64,000 nucleotides of DNA from a virus. The notes beneath the pieces were generated by a model. The model saw nothing but the letters and a program-made list of their open reading frames with translations. It was not told where the DNA came from and made no database searches. The stretch lies in IMG/VR virus record IMGVR_UViG_3300012202_000039, positions 1 through 64,000 of that record; one strand, given 5' to 3'. A program made the position numbers and the translations under genes. Positions 3,450 through 40,026 of the stretch are shown here, one piece after another (position 1 is the first letter of the stretch; every line of letters starts with the position of its first letter).

Positions 3450-4778
3450 ATGAAACTTCTAAGTCCTAAAATTGAATTGAAAATATTAAAAACATTATTA
3501 ATTAATAAAAATCCTCAAGTTTCCGCTTTATTACTTTCTACCCTATCTAAAGATGATTTCTATTATCCTCCCACTCAAGTAGCTTTTGAGCGTACTTTAC
3601 TCTTAACTAAGAAAAAATCTCGTCCACCAACTTGGGACGAGATTGTTCATGATCCTACAATCGACGAAGATAATCGCCTAGTTTTACAGAAGTTTAAAAC
3701 TAGAGGTTATTCTGATACAGATCGGGCTAAGATTGGTTTATCTATTTTAGAAAAATACAAGAAGTTTAGACAATTCGCCTATCTATCTAACGACATTATG
3801 AAAGAGTTAAAGAAACCTAAGATAGATTTTGAGAAATTAACCAAGAAAACAACAGATGAACTAACTAAAATTAAGACACATACCGATAAAGATAACTGCT
3901 TTTTTCATGTAGGTAAAGGTGGAAACTCTTTAAAACTAGTTAAACGCGTACTAAAAGGTAATAGTAATAAATACATACCTACTGGCTTTAAGACTTATGA
4001 TGATACTAACCATGGATTTGCTCGTGGCAGTGTAGCGTTAATTTGTGGAACTACCGGTGCGGGTAAGACTCTATTAGCACGACAGATACAAAGAAATATG
4101 TCCGATCGTGGATTGATTAAGACATGTTTCGTATCTCTAGAGATGGATGAAGAGGAGAATATACAGCGTGATTTAGCTAATATTTCTGATACATCATTAT
4201 TAGATATTATAGCCTCAAAAACTCGCTTAACTAAGACGCAAAAAGATAATATTGAAAAATTATTTGTACGACGGAATAGGTTACTTAAACAAAAACAAGT
4301 AACTGAGACTACATTTATTCCTCCAGAAGATTATACTATGGAGGAAATTCTATTTCTTCTTAAACCATATGGCTATGATGTAATTTTTATCGATTATATC
4401 GGATTATTAGGTGGGATGGATGGCGATCTTCAGTGGCAAAAACTAGGAGAAGCTGTACGTTTCGCTAAGATGTTTGCTAAACATACTAATACATTAATAA
4501 TTATTAATGCACAATTATCAGAAGAAATGGTTATTAGGTATTCTAAAGCGCTTAAAGAGCACGCCTCGAATATGTGGGCCTTCTCTTATTCAGAAAACAA
4601 TATAATTTTTATTGATCAACAGAAAGCAAGACAAGGTAAACGCTTTAGATTTCCTTTGTATTCTGATCATGATAAAATGGCTGTTAGAGATTTAAGGGAC
4701 GTGGAACTTCAAAATATAGAGCAACAACAAGATAGTAATCAAACTAATAAGAATAAACCATCCTACGCTAAGAAATAA
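3450..4778 (+). CDS. dnaB: DnaB-like replicative helicase
   Basis: IPTGF, Walker A GTTGAGKT, FVSLEM, Walker B VIFIDY, NAQL and QKARQG motifs. Confidence 0.9.
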   Translation: MKLLSPKIELKILKTLLINKNPQVSALLLSTLSKDDFYYPPTQVAFERTLLLTKKKSRPPTWDEIVHDPTIDEDNRLVLQKFKTRGYSDTDRAKIGLSILEKYKKFRQFAYLSNDIMKELKKPKIDFEKLTKKTTDELTKIKTHTDKDNCFFHVGKGGNSLKLVKRVLKGNSNKYIPTGFKTYDDTNHGFARGSVALICGTTGAGKTLLARQIQRNMSDRGLIKTCFVSLEMDEEENIQRDLANISDTSLLDIIASKTRLTKTQKDNIEKLFVRRNRLLKQKQVTETTFIPPEDYTMEEILFLLKPYGYDVIFIDYIGLLGGMDGDLQWQKLGEAVRFAKMFAKHTNTLIIINAQLSEEMVIRYSKALKEHASNMWAFSYSENNIIFIDQQKARQGKRFRFPLYSDHDKMAVRDLRDVELQNIEQQQDSNQTNKNKPSYAKK

Positions 4779-13513: not shown

Positions 13514-15637
13514 ATGAAAACCAAGTCAATTTATAATAAGCCAGAAGTTGATTCCTTATTAAATTTTATGGACAAGGTAGAAGATAATTCTAATACTCCT
13601 AAAAATCAAATAACCTCGTATACTAACCGTGATATAAGAAAGACCATACAACGGGCTATTAATTCTCATGCTCCAATAGCTACAAATCTTAAGATAGATG
13701 ATAAAGATTTCAAACAAGCAGATAATTTCTATAATTTTACTACTATGAAGAAATATGCTCTGACCGACCCACCTTTCGCGATGCAGATGCATATGGTTAT
13801 TCAGGCTTTAGGTGAGTGGAACCCCCTTAAGTCTGACACTAAGTGGTTAAATACTAAATTACAGGCTGATACCCCTTTAGATGAATATCGCGATCACATA
13901 TGTTTATTAAAACAAGGTATATGTCCGAAGACTAAAGTAACCAAATCTGAATTAATTAAACAAAAGATACTTAACCCTTATAGCCAACTAATTGCGTGCT
14001 GGGGTCAGCGCAGCGGCAAGAGCTTAACTATCGCGCAAATTCTAGCATACATGGCTCATGGCCATCTAAAATTACAAAATCCTTCAGAAGTATTTGGCGT
14101 AGCTACGCATGCCTCCCTATTATCTTATTCTTTAGTATCTCTAACTTTTAAACAAGCATTAGAGAACCTTTATCATCCGTTTTATCAAATCGTAGGTGCA
14201 TCAGATTGGTTTCAGAATTATTTCCAAATGTTGGATGAGTACAGCCGTAAACAATCCGTTGAATTATATAAATTCAATGATACATTCTTGTCTTTTCGCT
14301 CACATAATATGATTGTAGCTGTATCTGGGCCAGACAAAAGAATATTACGCGGACGTGCCCGCCCCTTCTTTGCTATAGATGAGGCAGATTGGTTATTTTC
14401 ATCCAATAAGTCTGCTTCAGTAAAATATAACGTTGAGGAGATTTATGCGGCTTTACGGAATAGTATGATGGATATAGTAAGAGGGTGGAAAAATCTTCTA
14501 AATGATGGGTATAATTCTATAGTACCTCCGATGGCGTGTAATATATCTTCACCTTCGTCTAAGTTTGCTTTTATGATACCTATGATTGAGAAATCTAAAC
14601 ATTCTAGGAATATCTTTACTAGTCATCTATCTACACCAGAAGTTAATCCGAAGTTTACCTACGAAGACCTATATGAAGAAATTGTACCTCTACAAGGTGA
14701 AGAAGCATTTTTAAGAGATTTTATGGCGGTGCCGCCGTTATCATCATCTCCTTTTATTAGTGACATACAGAACTTTAAACTAGTAGTTAATCCCAACCGA
14801 GTTAATGGAGTTACGATTAACCAGAAGCAGATGATAGGTAAATCAGATAAATTATTCTCTGTTGGTGGATTCCAAATTGTTGCCGTAGATAATAAAGTAC
14901 CTAAGTTAATGTCGATAGACGCGGGTGAAGTTGACAATAGTTTCGCTTTTACAATCTCTCACAATGAAAAAGTAGATGGTAAATTTAAGCCTATATTTGA
15001 CGTAATGGGGGAAATTATCCCTTCTAAAGAAGCACCAATAAATTTTACGCTAGTAACTGAGCATATATTAATGCCGTTAATTAAGAAGTTTAATGTCAAA
15101 TTTTGCGTATGTGATAGATGGAATAGCATAAAGTTACTCTCTGATTTAGCCCAAGACTGTGATATAGATACCGAAGTATATAGCGTTAAGTATAGAGATT
15201 TCGTATCTTTCCGTGAAGGTATTTATAACGGTAAGTTAGAGCTACCTCGTCCAGAGTTAAAACCTAAGAAAATTTTAACATCTGGCGACGAGGGTTACCC
15301 GTACGGCTTTAAACAATACCCGATATCGCATTTTATCTTCCAATGTCTTACCGTACAAGATCAAGCGGGTAAAGCGGTAACTAAGGGTAAAAATGTTACT
15401 GATGATCTCTTCCGTGCCGCAGTTTTAGCCCATTCTTTTCTCGTTGATGTAGAATACCAAGAGTTATTCGAGGGCACCTCAGCTAATAAAGGTAGTCCCG
15501 GTTTAGCTATTATGGGTAGTTTATCAGGTTTCGGCAGTTATAATCCAGGACAATCTTCAAATATGGGGGTAGTGGGTACTTTATCAGGTACAGGACAATC
15601 TATGGGAACATCTTCCCGTGTTTTTGCACGTAAATAA
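13514..15637 (+). CDS. terL: Terminase large subunit
   Basis: Walker A WGQRSGKS, LRG, Walker B FAIDE, SSP motif, RNase H-like nuclease SIDAG...DRWNS...DDLFRA. Confidence 0.9.
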   Translation: MKTKSIYNKPEVDSLLNFMDKVEDNSNTPKNQITSYTNRDIRKTIQRAINSHAPIATNLKIDDKDFKQADNFYNFTTMKKYALTDPPFAMQMHMVIQALGEWNPLKSDTKWLNTKLQADTPLDEYRDHICLLKQGICPKTKVTKSELIKQKILNPYSQLIACWGQRSGKSLTIAQILAYMAHGHLKLQNPSEVFGVATHASLLSYSLVSLTFKQALENLYHPFYQIVGASDWFQNYFQMLDEYSRKQSVELYKFNDTFLSFRSHNMIVAVSGPDKRILRGRARPFFAIDEADWLFSSNKSASVKYNVEEIYAALRNSMMDIVRGWKNLLNDGYNSIVPPMACNISSPSSKFAFMIPMIEKSKHSRNIFTSHLSTPEVNPKFTYEDLYEEIVPLQGEEAFLRDFMAVPPLSSSPFISDIQNFKLVVNPNRVNGVTINQKQMIGKSDKLFSVGGFQIVAVDNKVPKLMSIDAGEVDNSFAFTISHNEKVDGKFKPIFDVMGEIIPSKEAPINFTLVTEHILMPLIKKFNVKFCVCDRWNSIKLLSDLAQDCDIDTEVYSVKYRDFVSFREGIYNGKLELPRPELKPKKILTSGDEGYPYGFKQYPISHFIFQCLTVQDQAGKAVTKGKNVTDDLFRAAVLAHSFLVDVEYQELFEGTSANKGSPGLAIMGSLSGFGSYNPGQSSNMGVVGTLSGTGQSMGTSSRVFARK

Positions 15638-17019: not shown

Positions 17020-20000
17020 ATGCATATTTTGATTAAAGGATTTGGTCGAACTGGTGTAGTTTCTTCTAAAGTCGGCGGTAGGTCTTTTACAGAAACCGCG
17101 ACGGATGGAGGAAATCTTAGTGGATTTGGTATCGGAGGTAATTACGGTTTAGGTGCATCAGCTATTATTCCTAACACCGATCTAGAGTTACTAGACGGTC
17201 TAATCTCGTTTAGAAGTGACCAAATTGTTCGGAAAGTATACCGGGATATCTATTGGCACGACGTTATTGCTGGTGGTGCCGTCGATATTCAATCTACTAT
17301 CCCTTTCTCAGATTTTAGCCTATCTGGTATCAACGATCCTAAAGTTCTCGAAGTCTACATGCAAGCTATTGAAAATATGTCTATCTTGACGTTGTTACCT
17401 TCAGTTAGGATCGACCAACTCGTCTTAGGCACATTTATCGGGGTAACTAACTTCGATAGAGAGATTAATAATTATACTTCATTAACTCCGATTAACATAG
17501 ATATGACGCAAATAACCCCGGCTCCATTGTTTGATATGGATCCCATTATTGATTTGCGTTTTGCTAAGGATACTCAGCGGTACCTGAGGAATACTAAAGA
17601 TCATAGGTACCAGCGTATCCGGAATAAAATGCCCCAATGGATGATCGATGGTATTTCCAAAGGACGCGTATTATTAGATTCAGCTAACGTCATCTACTTA
17701 CCTCGGAAGACTTTATCCACAAATAATCTCGGTACTTCCTATTTCCGTAGGATTTTACCGATACATATTATGGAAAAAGCTATATTACGAGGAAGCATAC
17801 AACAGGCATATAGAAGGCAACGAGCTATCGGATGGGCGCGAGTCGGCGACGATGAATGGGAGCCTACAAACAACGAACTAAGTTCTATTTTGAGTATGCT
17901 ACAATGTTTGACGGGTGACACACTTATATCTATAGAAAATAAACTTACACGTTTAGATAAGATTTGTTCGCGTAAAGGTATGCAAAAAGATGAAGGTAAG
18001 AAAATAAATCTAAAGATAAAAGGCAAAGATGGTAAAATAGTTACTGCTAATAAGTGGTGGTATCGCGGTTACGATTATGTTAATAACATTAAGACTGAGC
18101 ACGGATACTCATTAAAAGCCACAGATACTCATCGTATACTGGTACTTAATGACAAATTAAAATTAATCTGGAAATATACTAAAGATTTAAAGATCGGTGA
18201 CAAACTTTGTTTAGATAGTAACATATCTAAAAGTGAAAATAATACCCAATTAAAGGTAGATATTAATCTACCTACATTAGTTACTCGCCCGCAAAGTGGC
18301 GGTATGACAGCTAAAGCTATAGATATTCCTAAAGAAATGTACCCAAAATTAGCTTATTTATTAGGATTATTAGTTAGTGAGGGGCATGTCCATAAGCATT
18401 ATGTAGCTATAACTAATAGTGCAGAAATTTTGCTCGAAGAAGCTATAGATTGTTTTAAAGAAATCTTCTATCTTAATCCTAGAATTGAGTGGATGGATAG
18501 AATAGGACAAGAAATAGTTATAAATGGTGTGCATACGGGTACTACTAGAAGTCTATCTGGTGTAGTACGTGCCCATAGCATATATGCCTCTCATATATTA
18601 CAGAAGCTAGGCGTTAGCTCCAGTGAAACTCTTAGATTAAATGGTGATAAATATCCAGCAAATTATAAAGAAATTCCTTGGTCTATTCTTCAAGCTGATG
18701 ATGAATCTAAATATGCCTTTATTGCAGCATATTTAGATGGTGATGGCGGTCTCGAAGTACATGATACCAATTCGGGTAAAAATATACTTCTTATTATACG
18801 TAGTTTTAGTAAGAAATTACTAAAACAAATGCAGATAATGTTATTAGATCTAGGTTATCATTCTCATATATCCTATGATCTTAATAGGTTAACTATAAAT
18901 CGAAATAATGCGGCTAAATTATATGCTAAAATATCAAAGTATCTCAAGCACCCAGATAGAATTATTAAAGATTGTTCTGGTCAGGCTAACGATATGGGTG
19001 AAGGTATTCCCGTAGCCCCTATTCGGAAGTTATTTCAATCTAGATTCATCCGCTCAGAATATAGAAAACACTTTTTCTTAAATGATGAAGGTAAAGAAAT
19101 CAGTATTAAACATTATGGAGTATTTTTAGCTAAAACTTTAAGTCATAATACTCTTCGTACTGAAGCATATAATAGAGATGAATATAAAAATATATTAGAT
19201 GCTTTAAAAATTATTAGTAAGAAATTTTATAATACAGTTGTAGATTTACTAGGCGTTGGATATAGGTATGAATCTATTACCTCTATTACTAAACTAGCTA
19301 AAAAGCAACATTTATATGATTTAACTATTGATAAAAAATCAGAGTCGGCTTTTGTCGCTAATGGTATAGTTGTTCACAATTCTGCTGATATGGACCCTAT
19401 CGGCGCTTTTCTCGTAACTAGAAATGGTATTGATTATCAAGATATACGAGAAGGTGGACAGTTTTGGTCCTTCAATGATGTCTTCGATACCTTTTCTAAC
19501 GCTAAAATGCGCGGGCTTGGAATTTCAGAGGGATTATTATCCCAAGAAAATACGTATTCAACACTCGAAGCATCCATAAGTATGTTCATGGATCAAATAA
19601 AAAGTGATCGAGAACAGACAACGAGAGAAATGTTCACTAACCGTATATTCGCAAATATCGCTATTACTAACGATTTTAAACGTAAAAATCCACGGATGGA
19701 AGTACCTAACGACGCTGAACAATACCCAACTTTAAGTTCTATGACGACTAAAGGTAGTCCTAGGGGAGTACACCGCACTGAAGATGGCCGTTACTTCGCT
19801 GTTTGTAGTTCAGCTAGTGCTAGATCGCAACTAAGTGAATATCAGATACCCAGTGTTCATTGGCACAAACAGCTCGAACCTAAAGGTGATCGGGATTACG
19901 TTGATTTACTATCTACTCTAGAAGAAAAAGGTGTACCTGTTCCTCTGCGGGTGTACGCCGCATCCGTGGGTGTAGATTTAGATGCTATTGTTCAAGGTAT

Positions 20001-20367
20001 GGATAACGACAAGAAACTCCGTAAAGAATTTGCTAAGTTTAAACAAGAAACTGGTGGTGGCGGTGATGAAGAAGAACAAGGTGGTGGACAAGGTCAGCAA
20101 TTCGCTTCGGATCTGAGTAAAAGTGTGGGTAGTAGCGTAGCTCGTGTTGGTTTAGGTAATAGAACAACGGATGATCCCCGCTACAAGATTAGAGGTTCTA
20201 ATAATAAGGGTACACCGCAGGAACTTTCACGTAAAGGTGAAAAACTAGCTAACGAACGTATGCACAAGTTAGTAGCTAATATCCTAGCCGAGCGGCAACG
20301 TCAGGAAATCGTCAAGGAAAATAGCAAATTTAACAAACTTAAGGGTTTAAGGAAACCAAATAAATAG
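17020..20367 (+). CDS. Portal protein, intein-containing (623 aa after splicing)
   Basis: Lies between terminase and prohead protease; portal-like GTSYFRRILP, LGISEGLLS and PSVHWHKQL blocks; internal intein. Confidence 0.75.
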   Translation: MHILIKGFGRTGVVSSKVGGRSFTETATDGGNLSGFGIGGNYGLGASAIIPNTDLELLDGLISFRSDQIVRKVYRDIYWHDVIAGGAVDIQSTIPFSDFSLSGINDPKVLEVYMQAIENMSILTLLPSVRIDQLVLGTFIGVTNFDREINNYTSLTPINIDMTQITPAPLFDMDPIIDLRFAKDTQRYLRNTKDHRYQRIRNKMPQWMIDGISKGRVLLDSANVIYLPRKTLSTNNLGTSYFRRILPIHIMEKAILRGSIQQAYRRQRAIGWARVGDDEWEPTNNELSSILSMLQCLTGDTLISIENKLTRLDKICSRKGMQKDEGKKINLKIKGKDGKIVTANKWWYRGYDYVNNIKTEHGYSLKATDTHRILVLNDKLKLIWKYTKDLKIGDKLCLDSNISKSENNTQLKVDINLPTLVTRPQSGGMTAKAIDIPKEMYPKLAYLLGLLVSEGHVHKHYVAITNSAEILLEEAIDCFKEIFYLNPRIEWMDRIGQEIVINGVHTGTTRSLSGVVRAHSIYASHILQKLGVSSSETLRLNGDKYPANYKEIPWSILQADDESKYAFIAAYLDGDGGLEVHDTNSGKNILLIIRSFSKKLLKQMQIMLLDLGYHSHISYDLNRLTINRNNAAKLYAKISKYLKHPDRIIKDCSGQANDMGEGIPVAPIRKLFQSRFIRSEYRKHFFLNDEGKEISIKHYGVFLAKTLSHNTLRTEAYNRDEYKNILDALKIISKKFYNTVVDLLGVGYRYESITSITKLAKKQHLYDLTIDKKSESAFVANGIVVHNSADMDPIGAFLVTRNGIDYQDIREGGQFWSFNDVFDTFSNAKMRGLGISEGLLSQENTYSTLEASISMFMDQIKSDREQTTREMFTNRIFANIAITNDFKRKNPRMEVPNDAEQYPTLSSMTTKGSPRGVHRTEDGRYFAVCSSASARSQLSEYQIPSVHWHKQLEPKGDRDYVDLLSTLEEKGVPVPLRVYAASVGVDLDAIVQGMDNDKKLRKEFAKFKQETGGGGDEEEQGGGQGQQFASDLSKSVGSSVARVGLGNRTTDDPRYKIRGSNNKGTPQELSRKGEKLANERMHKLVANILAERQRQEIVKENSKFNKLKGLRKPNK
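17905..19380 (+). mobile_element. Intein with LAGLIDADG homing endonuclease (492 aa)
   Basis: Q/CLTGDT block A, ATDTHR block B, LAYLLGLLVSEG and FIAAYLDGDG, LYDLT..FVANGIVVHN/S C-terminus. Confidence 0.95.
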
Positions 20368-23192: not shown

Positions 23193-23957
23193 ATGAATAA
23201 CCGTCCTTTTCATATCTATTCTGATTGTCTCGGCTCACTAAAACATGTAGAAGCCTTTGATTTACTAGATGAAAAACGTTCGGATAAGCTGGAGTTATTT
23301 AAGATTCAAGCTGCCGCTACGGATATGACTAAAGATATTAAAGAAACTATTGTAACTGCACCTAAGATTCTCCCCTTCGCTGCGGAGAAATACAATATTT
23401 CACCTAATATTAAAGATTATATTCTCTGTTGCGTAGTAGTTTTACCTTCAGATCTACCCAATAAAAATGGTATTGCTTTTTCTCATGCTGAGCTTAGTTC
23501 GTTCGTTGTGGATGCTGGATCACTATGTTATGATACGTTTAGATATCGTCCGATTCACCTCGAACATGCCAATAAGGACCCTAGCATAGCTAAAGGCATA
23601 ATTTTAAGCTCTAGTTACAAAAGAATGACAGGATTTAAAGGTAATTTGTGGAAAGTTATCTGTCTCTGTGCGGTTGACCGTAATCGCGATAAAGTTTTAG
23701 CCGATCGTGTTCTTAATGAAAAAGATACCGGTTTTTCCTTAGGTAGTCTATGTGCCGATTACCGTTGTTCTATTACTGGTAACCTTTTTAGTTCAGGACA
23801 AGCTGAGAATTATACTAAGTTAGGTAAACCTTCTTTCCAAGTTGTGGGGAATAATTTAGCTTTCTTAAATGCCATAGATTCCTTAATGTTTGAAGTTAGT
23901 GTAGTAGCTTCTGAGGCTTATTCTTCTGCTCGAACACCATATAAGATGACCTTCTAG
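23193..23957 (+). CDS. Prohead (capsid maturation) protease
   Basis: PNKNG..F, PIHLEH (His), KGII, FSLG (Ser), FEVSVV: herpes/HK97-type protease pattern. Confidence 0.8.
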   Translation: MNNRPFHIYSDCLGSLKHVEAFDLLDEKRSDKLELFKIQAAATDMTKDIKETIVTAPKILPFAAEKYNISPNIKDYILCCVVVLPSDLPNKNGIAFSHAELSSFVVDAGSLCYDTFRYRPIHLEHANKDPSIAKGIILSSSYKRMTGFKGNLWKVICLCAVDRNRDKVLADRVLNEKDTGFSLGSLCADYRCSITGNLFSSGQAENYTKLGKPSFQVVGNNLAFLNAIDSLMFEVSVVASEAYSSARTPYKMTF

Positions 23958-24073
23958 TATAAAAGGAATAATAACTGTACTATAAATAGCTAAAGATAGA
24001 ATTTTTCAAGCAATAGTCCGCACTATAATTGGGTTATAAAAAGATATATAAATTTTGACATAAGGTTATTATA

Positions 24074-24823
24074 ATGCAACTAACTAAAGAGGTAATCTTA
24101 GCTAGGATAGATATTTCTTACCACGATAAGGCTGAAGCTATATATAAAATAATTAAACAAGAAGTGCTTAAGGGAAAGTTAATAAAACAAAGTAACACAG
24201 CTTTGAGTAAACATCTAGATTCTACAACTATTTATTTATTAAATTCTGAACGATTTAATGAACTATATAAGAATACGACTATATCTTTCTCTACCTATAA
24301 AACTAGTTCATATTTTAACGAAAATAAGCACGCCTCTGGTTTTACGGATCAGAAAGGTAGTATAAAGCTGTTATATACATTTAGAATTTATACTTCCAAA
24401 TTTAAAAATGATCTCCATTTCTTAGTTCCACGGTTGAATAAGCAAGAAATTATATCTTTCTTTACTTATGATTTGTATAAAGATATATTTATTCATGAGT
24501 TAACGCACTACCTTCAGATACATAAACGTTTATATTTTGAATCTCCCTTTAAGAATGCTGATAATGATTACTTTAAACAAAGAATAGAACGAGAAGCATA
24601 CTTGAATAGTTTTATTGGAGATTTAAAGAATATCATTATAAAAAATCCAGAAAAATATCTACAGTCATTAAACGATTTTAAAAATTTAATAAAATATGAA
24701 TTAAGAAATGGCGGTAATGCTAAAGATATATTAGATAACCTATCCAATACTACGAGAGAGCAATATTATATAGATGTATACGAATATTTCAGGAAGAAAT
24801 ATAAGCAAGGACTAAATACATGA
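24074..24823 (+). CDS. Zincin-like metallopeptidase (paralogue 2)
   Basis: HELTH plus EREA; first 21 aa identical to 20865..21689. Confidence 0.65.
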   Translation: MQLTKEVILARIDISYHDKAEAIYKIIKQEVLKGKLIKQSNTALSKHLDSTTIYLLNSERFNELYKNTTISFSTYKTSSYFNENKHASGFTDQKGSIKLLYTFRIYTSKFKNDLHFLVPRLNKQEIISFFTYDLYKDIFIHELTHYLQIHKRLYFESPFKNADNDYFKQRIEREAYLNSFIGDLKNIIIKNPEKYLQSLNDFKNLIKYELRNGGNAKDILDNLSNTTREQYYIDVYEYFRKKYKQGLNT

Positions 24824-24993
24824 ATAAATTTTATCTCTACTCGCAAAGAGATTCGGTTCTAGAAGATATAGAAGAACAAATGCATAAACTTAAAACTGAA
24901 CACCAGAGACAGACGGAAGATTATAAAACACAAATGGAAAGTTTACGTAAACGTAAAGAATCTCGTATGCAGGGTCTAGGTAAGAACAAATAG
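24820..24993 (+). CDS. Small coiled-coil protein (57 aa)
   Basis: Manual translation MNKFYLYSQRDSVLEDIEEQMHKLK...; ATGA coupling; AAGGA RBS. Confidence 0.6.
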   Translation: MNKFYLYSQRDSVLEDIEEQMHKLKTEHQRQTEDYKTQMESLRKRKESRMQGLGKNK

Positions 24994-24996
24994 GCC

Positions 24997-25004
24997 CTGT
25001 AAAT
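24997..25004 (+). promoter_or_regulatory. Candidate phage promoter element CTGTAAAT
   Basis: Same element at 38655 and 62493, with variants at 3356, 3410, 11558 and 15651, all intergenic. Confidence 0.45.
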
Positions 25005-25063
25005 AGAACACAGAATACCACTAATGGTACTCTAGTTTTTAAATAAATTGAAGGTAAATAGTT

Positions 25064-25873
25064 ATGTCAGTTAATATTGTTCAAAATAAGTTTCTTGAAT
25101 ATATCGTCAGCGAATGTCACGATCGTGGTAATTTAATCGAGATGAATATTCATCTCGTAAATAATGTACGTTTAGTTGGACATATTATTGGTTACGATGA
25201 CGATTCCATCATTCTTAATGGTCGTGGTAAAACGCAGATTGTCTTCAAGAAGGCTATTTTGACTATTTGTCCTGGCGACAAGGGTGACGTAAACATGCTT
25301 AAGGCATGTTTACCTGATACGCTTAGTGAAGCTGCGCTTAATAGGTTAGTAGGTAATACTAGTACATATAGGCACTACACTTCTTCAAATTTAGATAAAA
25401 CTAGCCACCAACCTTATTACGGTGAGCCCCAGACAGATTTAAATCCAGTAAAAGAACCTATTGATATAATCAAACAAGTTGAAGGTAAGGTCGGCGAGGG
25501 TAGTTGTAGTGGGATCGGCGGTGAGGTTAATAACCAGCTAATTCCTAGTTATGATGCTATCCTGAACTACCATAAGAATAAAGGTAATTCTGTTTCAGAA
25601 GAAGATAAGGTCAGTGATAATGCCGAGGAATCTCGGGCTCCTACTGAGAGAGAAGAATTTAATAAGTATCTAAAAGAGAAGTATTCTAGTTCAGATGATA
25701 AGGGACGTAAAGAACTTTTAGAACAATTAAAGCTAAAAAATAACATTGGCGCATGTTTTAGTGATCCTGATGATGATATGTATTATCCTAGTAATATGAG
25801 TAATCTTCTTTCAGAAGAAGAGAAGATTACTCAAGAAATGCACGATAATGGTACTGACAGTGTTGCAGTTTAA
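25064..25873 (+). CDS. hfq: Hfq-like Sm protein with ~200-aa acidic C-terminal extension
   Basis: VQNKFL...IHLVNNVRLVGHIIGYDDDSIIL...TQIVFKKAILTICP aligns with Hfq LQDPFL...[23 protein letters not shown]...SQMVYKHAISTVVP. Confidence 0.85.
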   Translation: MSVNIVQNKFLEYIVSECHDRGNLIEMNIHLVNNVRLVGHIIGYDDDSIILNGRGKTQIVFKKAILTICPGDKGDVNMLKACLPDTLSEAALNRLVGNTSTYRHYTSSNLDKTSHQPYYGEPQTDLNPVKEPIDIIKQVEGKVGEGSCSGIGGEVNNQLIPSYDAILNYHKNKGNSVSEEDKVSDNAEESRAPTEREEFNKYLKEKYSSSDDKGRKELLEQLKLKNNIGACFSDPDDDMYYPSNMSNLLSEEEKITQEMHDNGTDSVAV

Positions 25874-25899
25874 TTAAGTTCAAAGAGGAAATAATTAAG

Positions 25900-27027
25900 A
25901 TGTCTACGATTGATTTCCCCGAGTTAGATATTGAAACCTATATCTCTGCTGACCCTATCGACGTAGTACCAGATAATAGCAAGGGTTCACAGAAGATTGC
26001 TATTCTAGGCTTAGGTCAAGCCGGCGGACGTATAGCAGAAGCTTTCCAAGACATTGGGTATAATAAAACTATTTATGTTAATACTACCGCACAAGATATT
26101 AATAATATTGTCTATAAATGTATTATTGGTATTACTGGTCGACCAGGCGGTGCTGGTAAGAATATGGCTATTGCTAGGGAAGCCTTTAATCAATGTGAAT
26201 CAACTATTACTAACTTGATGACTAAAGTGTACGGTAAAGTTGATCATATTCTAGTATGTGCTGCGTTAGGCGGAGGTACTGGCTGCGGTTCCGTGGTTTC
26301 TGCTTTAGAATTAGCTAAGAAGTATATGCGTTATATCGGACACGCCGATGCAGATAAGCGAGTTGGGGCGGTTATTACTATCCCAACTAATGGTGAACTT
26401 AACCCGCAAGTATTAAGTAATACTCTAGAAACCGCCGAAGAATTATCTAGGTTAGCAGATAATCAAGAAATCAGCCCTTTGATTATGGTGGATAACGAGA
26501 AGCTTAAGCTTCTCTATCAGACTAAAATTCCTATTGCGAAGTACCACACAACTATTAATAATCTTATTGTCCAGCTTATTGATAGTTTTAATACTATTTC
26601 TAACCAAGCTAGTGAATACATCACCTTCGACGCCACAGATTATGAAACCATCCTACAATGTGGCGGTCATATGATTTCCGGGGTAACTCGGGTAGATAAT
26701 TGGTTAGATAAAGATCTAGTAGTTAAAGCATTTCGAGATAATTTGATGGGTGCATTATTATCCTCTGATTTCGACCTAACTACGGCTACTCACGGCGGTG
26801 TAGTAGTAATGGTTGACGAGGAGTTGATTAATACTGATGTAAATCTTCAAGCTTTTATTGAAGCTGGATTTGATTCGATTAATCTCCTATGTCCTAAGGC
26901 CACTATTCATCGTGGTTTATACAAATGTAAGCCGACTAAGTTGAGTAAAGTTCGCGTATATACCACACTAGCTGGATTAAAGACACCTACTCGTAAATAT
27001 GATAAGTTATCTGCTTTATTGAACTAA
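25900..27027 (+). CDS. Tubulin/FtsZ-superfamily GTPase (PhuZ/TubZ/CetZ-like)
   Basis: GLGQAGGRIA, VNT, GAGKN, signature GGGTGCG, P..E, DNEKL, T7-loop FDATD. Confidence 0.92.
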   Translation: MSTIDFPELDIETYISADPIDVVPDNSKGSQKIAILGLGQAGGRIAEAFQDIGYNKTIYVNTTAQDINNIVYKCIIGITGRPGGAGKNMAIAREAFNQCESTITNLMTKVYGKVDHILVCAALGGGTGCGSVVSALELAKKYMRYIGHADADKRVGAVITIPTNGELNPQVLSNTLETAEELSRLADNQEISPLIMVDNEKLKLLYQTKIPIAKYHTTINNLIVQLIDSFNTISNQASEYITFDATDYETILQCGGHMISGVTRVDNWLDKDLVVKAFRDNLMGALLSSDFDLTTATHGGVVVMVDEELINTDVNLQAFIEAGFDSINLLCPKATIHRGLYKCKPTKLSKVRVYTTLAGLKTPTRKYDKLSALLN

Positions 27028-27040
27028 AGGAGTAACACAA

Positions 27041-27253
27041 ATGAACGAACCTAAGAAAATTTTACATATTACAGTTGGTTCTGATGATTGGTATTCTACT
27101 AATGTAGAATTGGAGCAAGTTTATAATTTATTTAAAAATGGTATATTAAATGCGCATAATTGTGTTACACAAAGAGGTATTGAAGTTAAGGCTATAGATA
27201 ATATTGAAGATATAGATGAAATTGTCATCAGGCGTAAGATGAAATTACCTTAA
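27041..27253 (+). CDS. Stand-alone homologue of a portal subdomain (70 aa)
   Basis: ILHITVGSDDWYSTNVEL...VTQRGIEVKAI aligns to spliced portal IGWARVGDDEWEPTNNEL...VTRNGIDYQDI. Confidence 0.65.
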   Translation: MNEPKKILHITVGSDDWYSTNVELEQVYNLFKNGILNAHNCVTQRGIEVKAIDNIEDIDEIVIRRKMKLP

Positions 27254-27285
27254 ATAATACACCAAAACTAGCCAATTCTATATGG

Positions 27286-27320
27286 AATAGCCCTAAGGTA
27301 TCACCTTAGGGCTATTTTTT
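27286..27320 (+). terminator. Intrinsic terminator closing the hfq-tubulin unit
   Basis: AATAGCCCTAAGGT-ATC-ACCTTAGGGCTATT plus T run. Confidence 0.9.
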
Positions 27321-27388
27321 CGTTTAAAGTTATCTAATTTATTAGATACTATTCAATAGTATCTAATTCTCTCCTAAAGGAATATAAA

Positions 27389-28309
27389 ATGTACCTAGGC
27401 CACGTAGTCAAAGCTGAAGCTATCCCTCAGTGGTTTTCTGATATGAATAAAGAAGGTCAACAAGGCTACTTAAAAGATCACCCTAACTCCAAGATTGCTC
27501 ATACAGTTAAGAATAATCCGAAAGCTTTGAAATCTGGTAGTAGGGGTGGAACTAATAAACCAGCTCCACACGATCCTAAGAAGACTCTAGATATTATCAA
27601 AAAGAATCCTAGGGTTCAGAAGGCGCTTAAACCAAATTCTCCAGAACGACAGGAATTAGCTGGTAATTTAAAGAAATATAAAAAATTAATGGATAAGACC
27701 TATAAAGGATTAGATTTAGAAACTAGAGATGCACTTAGGGCTACTTCTGCTAAACTAAAAGCTGGTAAGAAATTAGATGAAAAAGATATGCAAGGTATAG
27801 TAAATTTAACAAATGAATATACTAAGAAAAATAAATACGGATTAGGTAAGGCGGCAGCCAATGCAGTTGGTGCGGGTATTGGTGTTGCTGCTATGAACGT
27901 GGGCGGAGCGTTAACATTATATACTGGTGGTTTGGCAGGAACATTAGGAATTGGGGCAGCAGGTACAGCTGCCGCTATTGCCGCTCCTCTTGGTATTGGG
28001 CTGTTAGCAGTTGGCGCAGGTATATATGGGTATAATGCATTTAAGGGTATTAGAGGAAATTTTAGAAATTTACGAGGCAAAACTAAAATTAACGACAGAG
28101 AAACCCAAGAATTACTTAAACACAAGAATGAATTCAGTACTATTACAGCTTACTTCTACACTAAAGCAGAAGACAATACTCCCGATGATCCTATTCAAAC
28201 TATTCTAGATCACATGTCTAAGGCGGTGCAGACTACTAATCTCTCCCCAGAGATGTGGGCACAGATGTTAACTCCTATTAAAAGTGAAGCTAAAGAAAAA
28301 GAGGAATAG
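27389..28309 (+). CDS. Candidate internal head protein with Gly/Ala-rich hydrophobic hairpin (paralogue A)
   Basis: WFSDMNKEGQQGYLKDHPNSK motif; long GxxxG-rich segment. Confidence 0.55.
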   Translation: MYLGHVVKAEAIPQWFSDMNKEGQQGYLKDHPNSKIAHTVKNNPKALKSGSRGGTNKPAPHDPKKTLDIIKKNPRVQKALKPNSPERQELAGNLKKYKKLMDKTYKGLDLETRDALRATSAKLKAGKKLDEKDMQGIVNLTNEYTKKNKYGLGKAAANAVGAGIGVAAMNVGGALTLYTGGLAGTLGIGAAGTAAAIAAPLGIGLLAVGAGIYGYNAFKGIRGNFRNLRGKTKINDRETQELLKHKNEFSTITAYFYTKAEDNTPDDPIQTILDHMSKAVQTTNLSPEMWAQMLTPIKSEAKEKEE

Positions 28310-28311
28310 AG

Positions 28312-29160
28312 ATGTATTTTCCCTCTGAAAAAGAATATTTTAAAATAATGTCTAGTGTTGGCAAGCTAGACATTAATATAGATTTAAATGAAATATTATC
28401 TTCAGTAATACCTCTACATAATATCAGGTCTTATTACGAAGGTGCTAAAGCTTTACCTAAGTTCGACAAATCTAGTCTCAATAAGATATCACAGTCTGGA
28501 ACTAAGTCTATAAATAAAGCTAAAACTACATTAAAATCTAACGGCGTTAATATAACTTTACTTCAAAGCTTATGCTATAAGTATGGTAAAACCTATCGTG
28601 CCGGCTTTGATCCACAGAAATTCGCTCAACATATCAAAGAAATTCACACTAAAGTATCAGTTAAAGAGTTACCTAAAACTATACTATTATTACTAGTCAT
28701 GCTTATAGCCTCGTTATTATTTCAAATGATATTATTCTCAATTATAGTAACCGGTTTATCCGCTGTCGGTATATCTATAGCTGGAGGCTTTATATTTACA
28801 ATAGTTAACATCATTTACTTAGTTCTAGGGGCGCCTATATTTGAAGAAACTGCCAAAAAATACGCAAATGAACATGGATTTGGAAATACTTATGTAACAT
28901 TATTTACTTACGCCGAATTTGCTAAATACGTAATTACTTTTGCACATGCCGGCGTTGCCGTCCTAACTATTGTAGCTTATAGAATATTAGCAGCAGTTCT
29001 TCATTTTTATACACATTATTTACAAAAAGAAAATGTAGATTTTACGGGTAAGAAAAGTGATATTAAGAATGCAGGTTACAAAACAGGACTAGCAGTTCAC
29101 GGTCTTTGGAATTTTTGTTTAGGCGGCTTACCCATGGTACTACAACTTATTCTTAAATAA
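28312..29160 (+). CDS. PrsW/CPBP-type intramembrane glutamic protease
   Basis: TM helices with APIFEETAK (EExxK), FTYAE, AVLH and HGLWN motifs. Confidence 0.75.
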   Translation: MYFPSEKEYFKIMSSVGKLDINIDLNEILSSVIPLHNIRSYYEGAKALPKFDKSSLNKISQSGTKSINKAKTTLKSNGVNITLLQSLCYKYGKTYRAGFDPQKFAQHIKEIHTKVSVKELPKTILLLLVMLIASLLFQMILFSIIVTGLSAVGISIAGGFIFTIVNIIYLVLGAPIFEETAKKYANEHGFGNTYVTLFTYAEFAKYVITFAHAGVAVLTIVAYRILAAVLHFYTHYLQKENVDFTGKKSDIKNAGYKTGLAVHGLWNFCLGGLPMVLQLILK

Positions 29161-36685: not shown

Positions 36686-37417
36686 ATGATCAACCAGAAT
36701 CGTACGAAGCCAACCAAATCTATCGATTTCTTAATCAGTGGTAGTGTGACCACTATTATTGAAGGCGCCGTTCTGATCACCCAGACGGAAGCTGATGGGT
36801 TTAACCATGTTCTACCCTCGGCAGGTTCTAGCGGCGAGATTTTCGCTGGTATCGCTTATAGCCAGATGATGACTCCGACTACTTTCCCTCGGGTTAATCT
36901 GGTTACTGTTCCGCTGACTTCACCTTATACGGTTACGCTGGATCGTACTCCGGTTACCTATAATCTGGATATCAGCGTTAAGCGTAATAGCAATAATACA
37001 CTTCTGACCATTGATAACGGTGGTACTACGCCAGCTACTGGTCACGTTGCGTTAGCAGTTGCGGGTAATGTGCTTACCTTTAACGCGGCTGATGCCGGTT
37101 TAGCCATGACCGTGGTTTTCCGCTTTAATCTCAGTGTGGCAGAAGCTGAATTTATTGCAGGTGATGGTGTTATAGGTGCTCGCACTCCTGTGCAATTAGC
37201 TGGTTCAGTTGGTGTTATTCAGGGCGGTTTAGTTTATACCGATCAATTTGATCCTACCGTAGATTGGACAGCCCCTGCTATCGCTAATCTAGCTACTGGT
37301 GCTGGTGGTCGTTTAACTCGTGGTGGGTCAGGCTTTTCATTAACCAATGCGGGCATTTATGTAATTAAAGTGCCACAAATTGATGATCCTTACCTCGGTA
37401 TCGCCCTTAGCGCCTAA
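36686..37417 (+). CDS. Head decoration/structural protein
   Basis: Immediately upstream of the MCP; beta-rich; FAGIAY and YTDQFD motifs. Confidence 0.6.
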   Translation: MINQNRTKPTKSIDFLISGSVTTIIEGAVLITQTEADGFNHVLPSAGSSGEIFAGIAYSQMMTPTTFPRVNLVTVPLTSPYTVTLDRTPVTYNLDISVKRNSNNTLLTIDNGGTTPATGHVALAVAGNVLTFNAADAGLAMTVVFRFNLSVAEAEFIAGDGVIGARTPVQLAGSVGVIQGGLVYTDQFDPTVDWTAPAIANLATGAGGRLTRGGSGFSLTNAGIYVIKVPQIDDPYLGIALSA

Positions 37418-37455
37418 TTATATTTTTATAAAATTATTCCAAAGGAATATAGGTT

Positions 37456-38553
37456 ATGAAAGCAACTGTTGCTCGTCGCCCTGCTGTCCCAGCTTTACAT
37501 GCACGTTTTAATGGTAGTAATGAACGTATCGTCGGTCGAGACAATCATATTAATGCGGGTTCTAATAAGGAACTTCTAACCCGCATTAAAGATCTGGCGG
37601 AAATGGTCACCGCTGGTTCTATTGATATGTCGCCCTATAATAAGAATAATCAAGTTACTGCGGCTGACGTTCAAACTCGTAATCAAAAATTATCAGCAGC
37701 ATTTTATACCCAGAATAATTCCCGTCCGTGGGCAAATATGGGTGCCGCAGTTAGTGCCGATCTTTCGGAAGCCGCTGACCGTGAAGGCTTTATGCGTCGT
37801 CTCTTACTTAAGGTTGACGTAGCCAACGGAACTATTCCACGTATCCGCGTTAAGCAGAAGAATATTATCGCCTTAATCGCTTCTTCGGGGTTAGATAATC
37901 GGCCGGTATACTTACGTGATAAGTATATTACGCCTCCAGAATTTTATATTAAGCATAATATTCGCGTGGAAGAACGTGAAATTGTGCAGGGGTCTGGGGA
38001 TATTCTTGAAGATAAGTTCTTCGAGACCCAGGAAGGTATTATGGTGCAGGAAGATCGTAAGTTTATCTCTCTGCTAAATGATACTATTGGTATCGCTAAT
38101 AGTAATCAGCTTTTAGCGGGTGGTTTATCTCCTGCTACCTTATCACAGATGCGCACACAGATTCTACAGTGGAATCTGCCAGCATCTACTCTGTTAATTG
38201 CATCTGATGTGCTTAATGATATCGTTGGTCAGGGCGCAAATACTTTTGGCGGCTATTTTGATCCGGTGTCACAGTTTGAAATCGTTCAGACTGGTATGAT
38301 TGGTACCTTAATGGGTATGCAGGTTATCACGGATTCGTACCGTGCCCCAACTCTTAAGGTTCTTAATGCCGGTGATATCTGGGTACTTTCTAATCCAGAA
38401 ATGCTCGGTGCCTTTACGGATCGTGGTCCCGTGCAGTCACAGGAAGTTAATTCATACATGGAAGGTTCGCCCGCTCGTGGTTGGAACTTCTTTGAATTAC
38501 TGAGTATGACTATAACTAACCAACGGTCAGCCGTCCACGGAAGTCGAGTTTAA
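37456..38553 (+). CDS. Major capsid protein (HK97 fold)
   Basis: 365 aa; REGFMRRLL, QEDRKF, GMIGTLMGMQVIT (GxLxG), RGP and RGW motifs; position in head module. Confidence 0.8.
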   Translation: MKATVARRPAVPALHARFNGSNERIVGRDNHINAGSNKELLTRIKDLAEMVTAGSIDMSPYNKNNQVTAADVQTRNQKLSAAFYTQNNSRPWANMGAAVSADLSEAADREGFMRRLLLKVDVANGTIPRIRVKQKNIIALIASSGLDNRPVYLRDKYITPPEFYIKHNIRVEEREIVQGSGDILEDKFFETQEGIMVQEDRKFISLLNDTIGIANSNQLLAGGLSPATLSQMRTQILQWNLPASTLLIASDVLNDIVGQGANTFGGYFDPVSQFEIVQTGMIGTLMGMQVITDSYRAPTLKVLNAGDIWVLSNPEMLGAFTDRGPVQSQEVNSYMEGSPARGWNFFELLSMTITNQRSAVHGSRV

Positions 38554-38607: not shown

Positions 38608-38701
38608 CTAATTTAAGCGACATTATATTATATAACTCAAGATCTCTATTAAAACTGTAAATGAACAGAGATCTTGAGTTATAAATGTCGGCTTAAGTTA
38701 G
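38608..38701 (+). promoter_or_regulatory. Long inverted repeat upstream of the endonuclease gene
   Basis: Perfect 17-bp arms TATAACTCAAGATCTCT (38631-47) / AGAGATCTTGAGTTATA (38667-83) with imperfect outer arms; CTGTAAAT in the loop. Confidence 0.75.
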
Positions 38702-38712
38702 GAGAGTTTAAA

Positions 38713-40026
38713 TTGGAACGTTCAGAACAATATTATGATAGTTTAAAGAACGAACATATTAGAAAATTTAACGAAACACATGGTAAGGGTGAATATAAAT
38801 TCTTATCTAAGATTTATCGTAAACAATTAGACACATATAAATATAAGCATAAATGTGGGCTAATTTTTGAATCTACGGCTATGAGCCTACAACATGGCAG
38901 ATCTAAGTGTGTTTGCCAACATAAAATAAATATTCCGAATACACCTGAAGGGTTTAAAATTAGATCTGCTGCTTCAAATAAAGGCCAAGCTGGACGTTAT
39001 AAAACCTATCGTAAGAAAATGCAAGTAATATTAAACGAAAAGTACGGTGAAAATGAATATAAACTTTTAACTAAGAAATATGAGGGTGGAACTAAAACTT
39101 ATACCTTTAAGCATTCTTGTGGATTAAAATTTAAATCTACTGCTGCTTGTTTATCTAGAGGTTTATCTAAGTGTCCTTGTTTACACATTGTAAGAAGTAA
39201 AGGACTTACTCTAGAAGAACATAATATAGATTTACAAGCTAAAAAAGGTAACGATTATACTTGTACTAAATATTTTAGTATGCATGATCCAAATAATGAA
39301 TATATACACAATATATGTGATAATGCTTTTAAATCCCGTGCAGCAGCTGTTCTAGGTGATTTAAAAGGTTGTATCCATTGCTCGGGTAAAGACGGTAGTT
39401 TAATTAATAGAGTGACTAAACGTCAATTTATGAAAGAATTAAATAGTGTTGAAAATGGAAGAGATTACCGAATTATCGGAGATTTTGAGGGTAAGTCTAA
39501 AATAACAGAGTTTAAACATAATTGTGGTAATAAATTTAAAGCTAAGCCTTATGATGTATTAATGAATCGTATTAGATGTTATACATGTTATCCTATATTA
39601 AGTAATAAAGAAGTAGAAGTAAATAATAAAATTTTTACTTTACGTGGATATGAACCTTTCGCTTTAGAACGATTATTAAAGCTTTACAGTTATAAAGATA
39701 TTCTTGATTCTAAGTCAAAAGAGTTTCCTCATTTTAAATACACAATAAATAGGATACGCCGAAATTATATTCCAGATCTTTATGTTAAATCTAATAATCT
39801 AGTAATTGAGGTTAAGAGTTTATCAACTATGGGTTTAGAAAATTCATATTTTAATGATAAAGATGGTATCGATTTATTTGATAGAAATAGCGCCAAAGCA
39901 AAAGCAGTACTAAGAAAGGGTTACAAATTTAGGATGTACTTATTCGATAGTAAAGGTGTACGGATAACACTACCAAAATACTGGTATACGTTATCTAAAA
40001 CAGATGTGTTAGATTATATTTCTTAA
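38713..40026 (+). CDS. Free-standing (homing-type) endonuclease: Zn-finger repeats plus PD-(D/E)XK domain
   Basis: Four HxC..F...CxC/CxxC repeats; GYEPFAL and YIPDLY...IEVKS; TTG 38713 follows a GGAG RBS. Confidence 0.75.
   Translation: MERSEQYYDSLKNEHIRKFNETHGKGEYKFLSKIYRKQLDTYKYKHKCGLIFESTAMSLQHGRSKCVCQHKINIPNTPEGFKIRSAASNKGQAGRYKTYRKKMQVILNEKYGENEYKLLTKKYEGGTKTYTFKHSCGLKFKSTAACLSRGLSKCPCLHIVRSKGLTLEEHNIDLQAKKGNDYTCTKYFSMHDPNNEYIHNICDNAFKSRAAAVLGDLKGCIHCSGKDGSLINRVTKRQFMKELNSVENGRDYRIIGDFEGKSKITEFKHNCGNKFKAKPYDVLMNRIRCYTCYPILSNKEVEVNNKIFTLRGYEPFALERLLKLYSYKDILDSKSKEFPHFKYTINRIRRNYIPDLYVKSNNLVIEVKSLSTMGLENSYFNDKDGIDLFDRNSAKAKAVLRKGYKFRMYLFDSKGVRITLPKYWYTLSKTDVLDYIS

Follow-up and report, generated by a model that had tools for sequence, protein, structure and literature searches.

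What might a phage do with an Hfq of its own in which the proximal face, the distal face and the rim have all been altered, and to which a long tail has been added? The question is raised by an open reading frame (ORF) in a 64,000-nucleotide stretch of viral DNA, hereafter the window, which is the first 64 kb of the 79,973-base IMG/VR virus record IMGVR_UViG_3300012202_000039. Hfq is a hub of small-RNA (sRNA) regulation in many bacteria. From the letters alone, the original prediction had described the ORF as a phage-borne Hfq with Sm1 and Sm2 motifs; it proposed a profile search as a check and named a missing Sm fold as one outcome that would speak against it. Here we show that the ORF codes for a true, though strongly diverged, Hfq (bacterial Sm) family member.

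A diverged member of the Hfq family

Searches with hidden Markov models (HMMs) assigned the protein to Pfam PF17209 (Hfq) with 43.1 bits against a curated cut-off of 27 (E 3e-11, residues 21-72 on profile positions 10-61 of 64), and in a six-frame search the same family scored 46.1 bits. Solely Hfq chains were returned by phmmer from all Protein Data Bank (PDB) sequences (best 5szd, E 2e-5), besides two alginate lyase chains at chance level (E 0.12). The Sm topology was already visible in a poor AlphaFold2 (AF2) model made from the single sequence (predicted local distance difference test, pLDDT, 40), and when an 8-sequence alignment of single-domain relatives was supplied, residues 1-85 were modelled at pLDDT 80-97, with a helix at residues 2-20 and strands at 26-31, 36-44, 48-53, 56-61 and 65-70. 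The best Foldseek matches of this model are solved Hfqs from Caulobacter, Bacillus, Listeria, Neisseria, Pseudomonas and E. coli (target template modelling score 0.71-0.87, root-mean-square deviation 1.3-1.9 A). The neighbours of the whole protein in the ESM Atlas are likewise all PF17209 Hfq clusters, at scores (0.81-0.84) that are of lead level only. Behind the Sm core follow two short helices, residues 73-82 (pLDDT ~87) and 89-96 (~67), in a region shared with the metagenomic relatives P0012 and P0002. The phage-borne Hfq of the original prediction was thus found both by the profile search and by the predicted fold.

The gene starts with ATG, 8 nt downstream of the Shine-Dalgarno sequence GAAGGT, and runs for 269 codons, while no stop-free run exceeded 183 codons when the whole window was shuffled 60 times. 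In the part that encodes the tail, each of the other five frames holds 7-40 stops. The base composition is the phage's own (GC 0.36, GC at third codon positions 0.26-0.32). An intact ORF far beyond chance length and of phage-like composition argues for a maintained gene. The DNA of the window is present in two soil metagenome DNA runs, possibly the source sample itself, and Logan contigs from both runs cross positions 25055-28000 with zero differences and zero indels; therefore, core and tail were not joined by an assembly error in the IMG contig. An identical protein is also encoded on a 185-kb contig. As for an internal translation start, a repeat within the ORF resembles a ribosome-binding site (RBS), and this candidate was rejected when the sequence was read by eye, as no in-frame start codon comes after the repeat.

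When 1.84 billion cluster representatives were searched with phmmer, the protein itself and 28 others were found, all of the latter aligned only within residues ~6-96, and the identity to known Hfqs is at most ~45% over the core. No relative of residues 97-269 was present among these representatives or among 5.8 billion clusters, and a word-indexed search of the latter, covering near and shorter lengths, returned nothing but the protein itself. Peptide-pattern searches of IMG/VR with the protein, its neighbours and a three-sequence alignment gave no close relative, nor did the GTDB genomes; there was no match by tblastn (E 1e-3) in 50,697 phage records and no close relative by blastn of the phage collection. 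The sole return of a metagenome scan was the 2.1-kb contig of P0010, a 72-aa protein that together with P0012 (130 aa) makes up the two closest single-domain relatives, both metagenomic. Most of the nearest Hfq relatives (P0002-P0027) are 130-200 aa long and consist of two Hfq domains in tandem, usually a basic one (isoelectric point, pI, 9-10.6) followed by an acidic one (pI 4-6), which, judged from the sequences, looks like a built-in asymmetric ring design. P0010 is encoded on metagenome contig Ga0194059_1023346 (1-2145), just downstream of an open-ended ORF of 527 aa that ends in C-x-x-x-x-C and, by eye, resembles a ribonucleotide reductase.

RNA-contact surfaces and C-terminal tail

Residues were mapped by MAFFT alignment with E. 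coli K-12 Hfq (RefSeq record), and the E. coli residue is given first. At the proximal pocket Q8 is kept (Q7), D9 is N8, Q41 is D46 and F42 is D47, and the Sm2 motif Y55-K56-H57 reads F61-K62-K63, which keeps K56. On the distal face Y25 is replaced by H30 and G29 by N34, and I30 and K31 are conservatively changed to V35 and R36. Further changes are Q33 to V38 and S60 to L66. Around the rim, R16, R17 and R19 correspond to V15, S16 and L24, with the insertion E-C-H-D-R-G (E17-G22) between the equivalents of R17 and R19. Also kept or conservative are N28 (N33), F39 (Y44), D40 (D45), Q52 (Q58), T61 (T67) and P64 (P70), and along the β4-β5 edge 7 of 13 residues are identical (Q-I-V-F-K-K-A-I-L-T-I-C-P vs. 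Q-M-V-Y-K-H-A-I-S-T-V-V-P in E. coli). As complete sets, neither the canonical proximal uridine pocket (Q8, Q41, F/Y42, K56 and H57) with its Y-K-H motif nor the canonical distal purine site (Y/F25, G29, I30 and K31) is present, and the basic rim patch (R16, R17 and R19), which is not universal in the Hfq family, is absent. Concurrently, the Sm core has net charge 0 and pI 7.0, as compared to +2 and 9.4 in E. coli. The alignment reproduced each substitution that had been listed from the letters (D9N, Y25H, G29N, F42D and YKH to FKK), as well as the claim that the rim arginine patch is replaced by an insertion, here of six residues.

To see how rare these substitutions are, the residues were counted in the 52 Hfq domains closest to the phage protein. 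Position 25 is F or Y in 49 of them and His in one; position 29 is Gly in 50 and Asn in one; and Leu at position 60 occurs in none. At the proximal face, position 42 is F or Y in 27/52 and Asp or Asn in 12/52, position 57 is His in 28/52, position 8 is Q in 33/52 and position 56 is K in 47/52. On these counts, the changes on the distal face are the rare ones. The acidified proximal pocket and a residue other than His in Sm2 are common to a small set of diverged Hfqs; P0010 (G-Y-D-D-D, Y-K-N) and P0012 already have the acidic D-D-D/N at 40-42 and non-His at 57. The "remodelled faces" of the original prediction can therefore be retained in the sense that proximal face, distal face and rim are all altered, but part of this is not specific to the phage. 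Variants of P. aeruginosa Hfq at H57 have been crystallised (PDB 3inz and 3m4g, among the Foldseek matches), and a change at this position is therefore no bar to folding or crystallisation of an Sm domain.

The region behind the core (residues 73-269) has a net charge of -14 and a pI of 4.7, and the tail is rich in S, E, K, N and D. Low confidence (pLDDT <50) was obtained at residues 97-186, 228-249 and 256-269, and the tail ends in an acidic and aromatic stretch, D-P-D-D-D-M-Y-Y, then S-E-E-E. Between the disordered parts lies a K/E-rich hairpin with helices at 195-207 and 212-229, modelled at pLDDT ~80 without alignment depth and with the same helices in single-sequence AF2. Since residues 73-96 are common to a few relatives, the truly orphan tail is ~173 aa, and the structured, slightly basic hairpin means that the tail is not uniformly acidic or disordered. 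Of the acidic, probably disordered tail of ~200 aa that had been read from the sequence, the net acidity and the predominant disorder thus stand, while the length of the orphan part and the uniformity do not. An ESM Atlas search with the tail found nothing. As many relatives are tandem two-domain Hfqs, the tail was tested as a decayed second Hfq domain; an HMM of 49 such domains reported no hit in it but did so in 244 of 500 shuffles (maximum 3.1 bits), and this candidate was rejected.

The tail had also been likened to an exaggerated auto-inhibitory Hfq C-terminus. In E. coli the acidic tip of Hfq competes with RNA for the basic arginine rim, and tips that are acidic are found together with rims that are basic (PMC5606850). 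The arginine rim that such a tip binds is missing here and the core is neutral, and the analogy is weakened accordingly.

A proposed tailed ring and its alternatives

Tentatively, and at somewhat less than an even chance, we favour the reading that the gene product is an Hfq-family accessory protein that forms a tailed, RNA-binding ring of non-canonical specificity. The protein would assemble as an Hfq-type ring via the conserved β4-β5 edge, the ring would act post-transcriptionally in infection by binding RNA in its own manner, and its six tails would control entry to the ring or bring in partners. An RNA-binding ring is preferred because Q8, K56, a basic residue at 31, Q52 and T61 are retained, Q8 and K56 being proximal residues whose mutation severely reduces the activity of E. 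coli Hfq (PMC5348863), and because Hfqs of mobile elements, such as Hfq3 of pXO1, function via a subset of faces without a rim patch. The RBS of its own and the position in a compact same-strand unit that ends at a strong terminator were also counted in favour. With the uridine-stacking F42, Q41, H57, Y25, G29 and the rim arginines lost, binding of U-rich sRNA 3' ends, A-R-N tracts and duplexes would be unlike that of enterobacterial Hfq.

Several points weigh against this reading. The NCBIfam Hfq equivalogs were missed (TIGR02383 37.2 vs. 61.7 bits, NF001602 36.1 vs. 95 bits); the protein is therefore not an ordinary auxiliary Hfq but a family member that is not of orthologue grade. No orthologue was found in the clusters and the IMG/VR data searched, and purifying selection is for that reason not measurable. 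The two Asp in the proximal pocket, the neutral Sm core and the net charge of the tail would disfavour RNA binding. Finally, no known RNA motif can be assigned, because both sequence-specific faces carry rare substitutions.

Known Hfqs give a mixed picture. With those of E. coli (1HK9, 3QHS) and Caulobacter (6GWK) the phage protein shares the family HMM and the Sm fold, the residues Q8, D40, Q52, K56, T61 and P64 and the β4-β5 edge, and a disordered C-terminal extension that is acidic at its end. It differs from them in contact residues, rim insertion, neutral core and phage encoding, and the E. coli extension is 37 residues, as compared to ~200 with a helical hairpin here. Hfqs with long or regulatory C-terminal domains (CTDs), as in E. 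coli (PMC5606850), Caulobacter (PMC6561178) and Acinetobacter baumannii (GGFGGQ repeats; PMC11617691), likewise have variable, disordered CTDs with acidic residues near the end, whereas the phage tail is non-repetitive. A basic rim, the target of the known acidic tips, is lacking in the phage protein, which has the predicted tail hairpin. To our knowledge, the phage tail is roughly twice as long as those of the longest long-CTD Hfqs compared. In the cyanobacterial Hfq of Synechocystis the RNA-binding residues are poorly conserved. This Hfq, which is among the interactors of the pilus ATPase PilB1 (bioRxiv 10.1101/2021.06.11.447907) and thus has a protein partner, is a short cellular protein, unlike the one described here.

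Hfqs on mobile elements offer closer parallels. Hfq3 of the B. anthracis plasmid pXO1 is without the rim patch (I-E-E-Q) and has a truncated C-terminus, keeps Sm2 and binds RNA via a subset of faces (PMC5348863). Like the phage protein, B. anthracis Hfq3 and Hfq1 are extra diverged copies without the rim arginine patch and with negative proximal patches (PMC5348863), but they are short, have no long tail and are encoded on plasmid or chromosome. Among phages, the annotation "RNA chaperone Hfq" is given to gp78 of Bacillus phage IEBH, a copy of which is also present in phage 250; to phrog_13793, an Hfq-like family without annotation, our protein shows weak similarity (E 0.002-0.01). The IEBH protein is likewise a phage Hfq that deviates in Sm2 (F-K-S); unlike the source of our protein, IEBH and 250 are temperate plasmid-like siphophages of ~53-56 kb, and their Hfqs are of 90 aa without a tail. 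T4 GoF, MotB.1 and Frd.2 have been described as LSm-like, with a role in RNA stability proposed (GoF D25Y; PMC12152347); they share only the fold class with the phage protein and had no sequence match in the tblastn search above. Structural neighbours in BFVD are "Hfq-like/Sm-like domain" proteins of Mycobacterium phages Phabba and Tonenili and of Synechococcus phage S-CAM3 at 12-19% identity. These proteins and the GoF family carry the Sm-type fold at the N-terminus, frequently with an extension behind it, and are recognised by structure only, in contrast to the sequence-level Hfq described here. Hence phage-borne Hfq/Sm proteins as such are not new; distinct are the combination of a sequence-level Hfq with rare distal substitutions, an orphan tail of ~170 residues, and a location in a jumbo phage beside a tubulin gene. 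In the literature searched, no functional work on an Hfq encoded by a phage was found. That phages can rely on Hfq or rewire it is known from T2 (bioRxiv 10.64898/2026.06.19.733364) and from the VpdS sRNA of phage VP882 (reviewed in PMC13603594).

The same features can be read as directed against the host. As in the dominant-negative idea of the original prediction, a phage subunit could co-assemble with newly made host Hfq into defective rings, or it could soak up its partners; either would switch off sRNA-based stress and defence regulation. Such an activity would agree with a β4-β5 interface that is the best conserved part while RNA contacts on three surfaces have changed; Hfq is a plausible phage target, and PMC5348863, citing Vrentas 2015, gives a precedent in B. 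anthracis Hfq1, which is reported to be dominant-negative to E. coli Hfq. We nevertheless hold it to be unlikely, as the low core identity to any known Hfq makes co-assembly uncertain, several of the "inactivating" residues are present in the tail-less P0010 and P0012 and hence pre-date this protein, and the 170-residue tail is left unexplained. A fuller version, in which a ring-competent subunit with disabled RNA faces carries six acidic, nucleic-acid-mimicking tails and poisons nascent host rings or titrates their partners, so that stress and defence control by sRNAs would collapse in infection, is slightly less likely again. If true, it would be the first viral protein to attack the central RNA chaperone of the host through subunit mimicry. 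The tail is given more weight if the Sm domain is there just to join six acidic, in part nucleic-acid-like tails into a hexamer; the tails would bind and thereby neutralise a basic protein of host or phage, as a nucleic-acid mimic, a chaperone for basic proteins or a head-internal protein. This is in line with the net charge of -14, the D/E and aromatic stretches at the tail end, the neutral core with its acidified pockets, the established nucleic-acid mimicry of the acidic Hfq C-terminal tip (PMC5606850) and a gene location among the head-morphogenesis genes, with that of the protease on one side and that of the major head protein on the other. A pure scaffold would have no need of the retained Q8 and K56, however, and the tail has no homologue, motif or fold match; the location may be incidental, since the neighbouring tubulin is clearly no head gene. 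We consider a scaffold as unlikely as the defective-ring proposal.

In TubZRC systems tubR lies upstream of tubZ, and for this reason the linkage between the Hfq-like gene and the TubZ/FtsZ-like gene 3' of it was examined. A protein in the TubR slot might be an adaptor or regulator of the filament, its ring binding nucleic acid and its acidic tail the basic C-terminus of the tubulin. The short distance between the two genes in one terminator-bounded unit would fit, as would the closest solved structures of the tubulin, RepX (the top PDB match), FtsZ and TubZ, and the arrangement in Bacillus phage G, where a small winged-helix-like gene abuts a homologous FtsZ-like gene. RepX is a TubZ-type protein of pXO1. 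Evidently, the linkage is not kept elsewhere: in a survey of 80 viral and 77 genome loci with related tubulin genes, scanned over 5 kb to either side with an Hfq HMM that recovered the window gene as positive control at E 5e-20, none of the 157 loci had an Hfq-like ORF, and none of 20 whole viral records carrying a related tubulin (three of them complete) had a Pfam Hfq match over cut-off. No other neighbours were shared among the surveyed loci, whose upstream genes are heterogeneous, no iteron-like repeat array was found near the operon (23900-28400), and phage G gp137 showed no similarity to the Hfq-like protein. The adjacency of Hfq and tubulin is thus peculiar to this phage, which argues against an obligate machine of the two and is compatible with a local innovation, and an adaptor role appears decidedly improbable. 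Membership in the TubR class proper was rejected, the fold being Sm and not winged-helix, centromere repeats being absent and the linkage not recurring. Less probable than any of these is a decaying passenger, i.e. an old Hfq capture that drifts without function and has gained its tail by stop loss and read-through into formerly non-coding or foreign sequence. The protein is a singleton that has lost many canonical residues, with a tail that has no relatives and low predicted order, as such a passenger would. Against this, a stop-free tail of 173 codons at 36% GC is very unlikely without selection given the stops in the other frames and the shuffle maximum, the core folds at high confidence, and RBS and operon structure are intact.

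The protein is a compact and easily expressed test case for telling a phage's own RNA chaperone with a new specificity from a mimic that disables that of the host. It also raises the question what a long Hfq CTD can do in the absence of the basic rim that is normally under its control. As a singleton from a soil metagenome, the protein is of limited value in this respect.

The tubulin unit and the surrounding phage genome

The features of the locus and the identified genes of the window, whose identities rest on PHROG and Pfam matches, are collected in Table 1. The Hfq-like gene, the tubulin gene and the 70-aa ORF look like one terminator-bounded, same-strand unit, which sits in the head module between the genes for prohead protease and major head protein. 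The tubulin gene is probably co-transcribed with the Hfq-like gene. In the gap upstream of the latter, the hairpin with its T-run is a possible terminator or processing site that would separate the gene from the preceding ones; the motif CTGTAAATA, also upstream, is not recurrent. The inverted repeat near the end of the Hfq-like ORF, shortly before the RBS of the tubulin gene, may be a processing or stability element, and the RNA of 25780-25910 folds at -29.5 kcal/mol (z = -2.7). Between the terminator and the next gene (27389) lies a perfect 13-bp palindrome with a 1-nt spacer (ATTAGATACTATT / AATAGTATCTAAT, 27341-27367), which by its sequence looks like an operator.

Table 1. Positions in the window of the Hfq-like gene, its parts, its neighbours and the identified phage genes.
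Feature	Positions	Strand	Basis
Complete ORF, diverged Hfq-family protein, 269 aa + stop, long C-terminal extension	25064..25873	+	ORF list, Pfam, shuffles, independent contigs
Sm/Hfq core, residues 1-70, with 6-residue rim insertion E17-G22	25064..25273	+	AF2, Foldseek, E. coli Hfq alignment
Two short helices after Sm core, residues 73-96	25280..25351	+	AF2, phmmer, P0012 alignment
Orphan, net-acidic, mostly disordered tail, residues 97-269	25352..25870	+	Homology searches, composition, pLDDT
Predicted helical hairpin in tail, residues 195-229, K/E-rich, net +2	25646..25750	+	AF2
Palindromic hairpin, then T-run (25036-25040), in 70-nt gap upstream of Hfq-like gene	25011..25040	+	Terminator scan (stem reported on minus strand), sequence reading
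Perfect 13-bp inverted repeat, 11-nt loop, within last 25 codons of Hfq-like ORF, ~65 nt before tubulin start	25797..25833	+	Repeat search
TubZ/FtsZ-like GTPase gene, 375 aa, 26 nt downstream of Hfq-like gene	25900..27027	+	Pfam Tubulin 41 bits; RBS AGAGGA
70-aa ORF, 13 nt after tubulin gene, last before terminator; no family match	27041..27253	+	ORF list; RBS AAGGAG
Strong intrinsic-terminator-like hairpin, 16-bp stem (perfect 14-bp arms), T-run	27284..27318	+	Terminator scan, repeat search
DnaB-like helicase	3450-4778	+	PHROG/Pfam
Large terminase	13514-15637	+	PHROG/Pfam
Portal interrupted by intein with LAGLIDADG domain	17020-20367	+	PHROG/Pfam
Prohead protease	23193-23957	+	PHROG/Pfam
Virion protein, then major head protein	36686-38553 (major head protein 37456-38553)	+	PHROG/Pfam
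Tail sheath	42367-44979	+	PHROG/Pfam
Baseplate genes	55656 onward	+	PHROG/Pfam

The tubulin family is large, with relatives encoded in ~150 IMG/VR stretches and 83 in GTDB genomes at 25-42% identity; many relatives at 32-51% identity were also recorded. The GTDB relatives are mostly from metagenome-assembled genomes of Planctomycetota (Phycisphaerae, Pirellulales, Sedimentisphaerales), including a closed 2.96-Mb chromosome. These cellular relatives do not point to a host, as they are 35-41% identical, the same as the viral ones, and the phage GC of 33% does not fit Planctomycetota. In IEBH (NC_011167.1, 44296-50478), the gene for gp78 immediately follows that of a replication protein and adjoins that of an MreB/actin-like "partition protein"; counting the present one, an Hfq-like gene lies next to a cytoskeletal gene of partition type in two phages, an anecdotal observation.

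The DNA, with a GC of ~33%, is part of the genome of an uncultured jumbo myophage from soil, as concluded from its terminase relatives, its structural genes and its occurrence in the two soil runs. Jumbo phages of Erwinia, Xanthomonas and Pseudomonas (200-260 kb) have terminases with ~33% identity to that of the window, and every long ORF of the window is on the + strand. Among the sequencing runs listed for the window DNA, only the two soil DNA runs and no RNA run were present. Neither a chimallin nor a second Sm/LSm gene was found on the 80-kb record, which is only ~35% of the genome by CheckV, and there is no Rfam family and no tRNA within the window.

Other observations concern the structural module. 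The portal gene encodes 1115 aa with Pfam Intein_splicing at residues 323-787 and a LAGLIDADG homing-endonuclease domain at 565-638, and the PHROG portal match is broken into two stretches. The gene for the major head protein is immediately followed, at 38674-40026, by one for an HNH-type endonuclease (PHROG 559; C-terminal part Pfam DUF7487), which is probably a homing element and, with the portal intein, the second selfish element of this module. Just upstream of the Hfq-like gene, a 249-aa protein (24074-24823) without a Pfam, PHROG or NCBIfam match has the HExxH-type motif H-E-L-T-H and may be an unrecognised metallopeptidase adjoining the prohead protease. The Logan contigs of both runs break at 24070-24136, with 255-nt loose ends and a short contig with 3 differences, which suggests a strain variant or a repeat boundary where the gene for the 249-aa protein begins.

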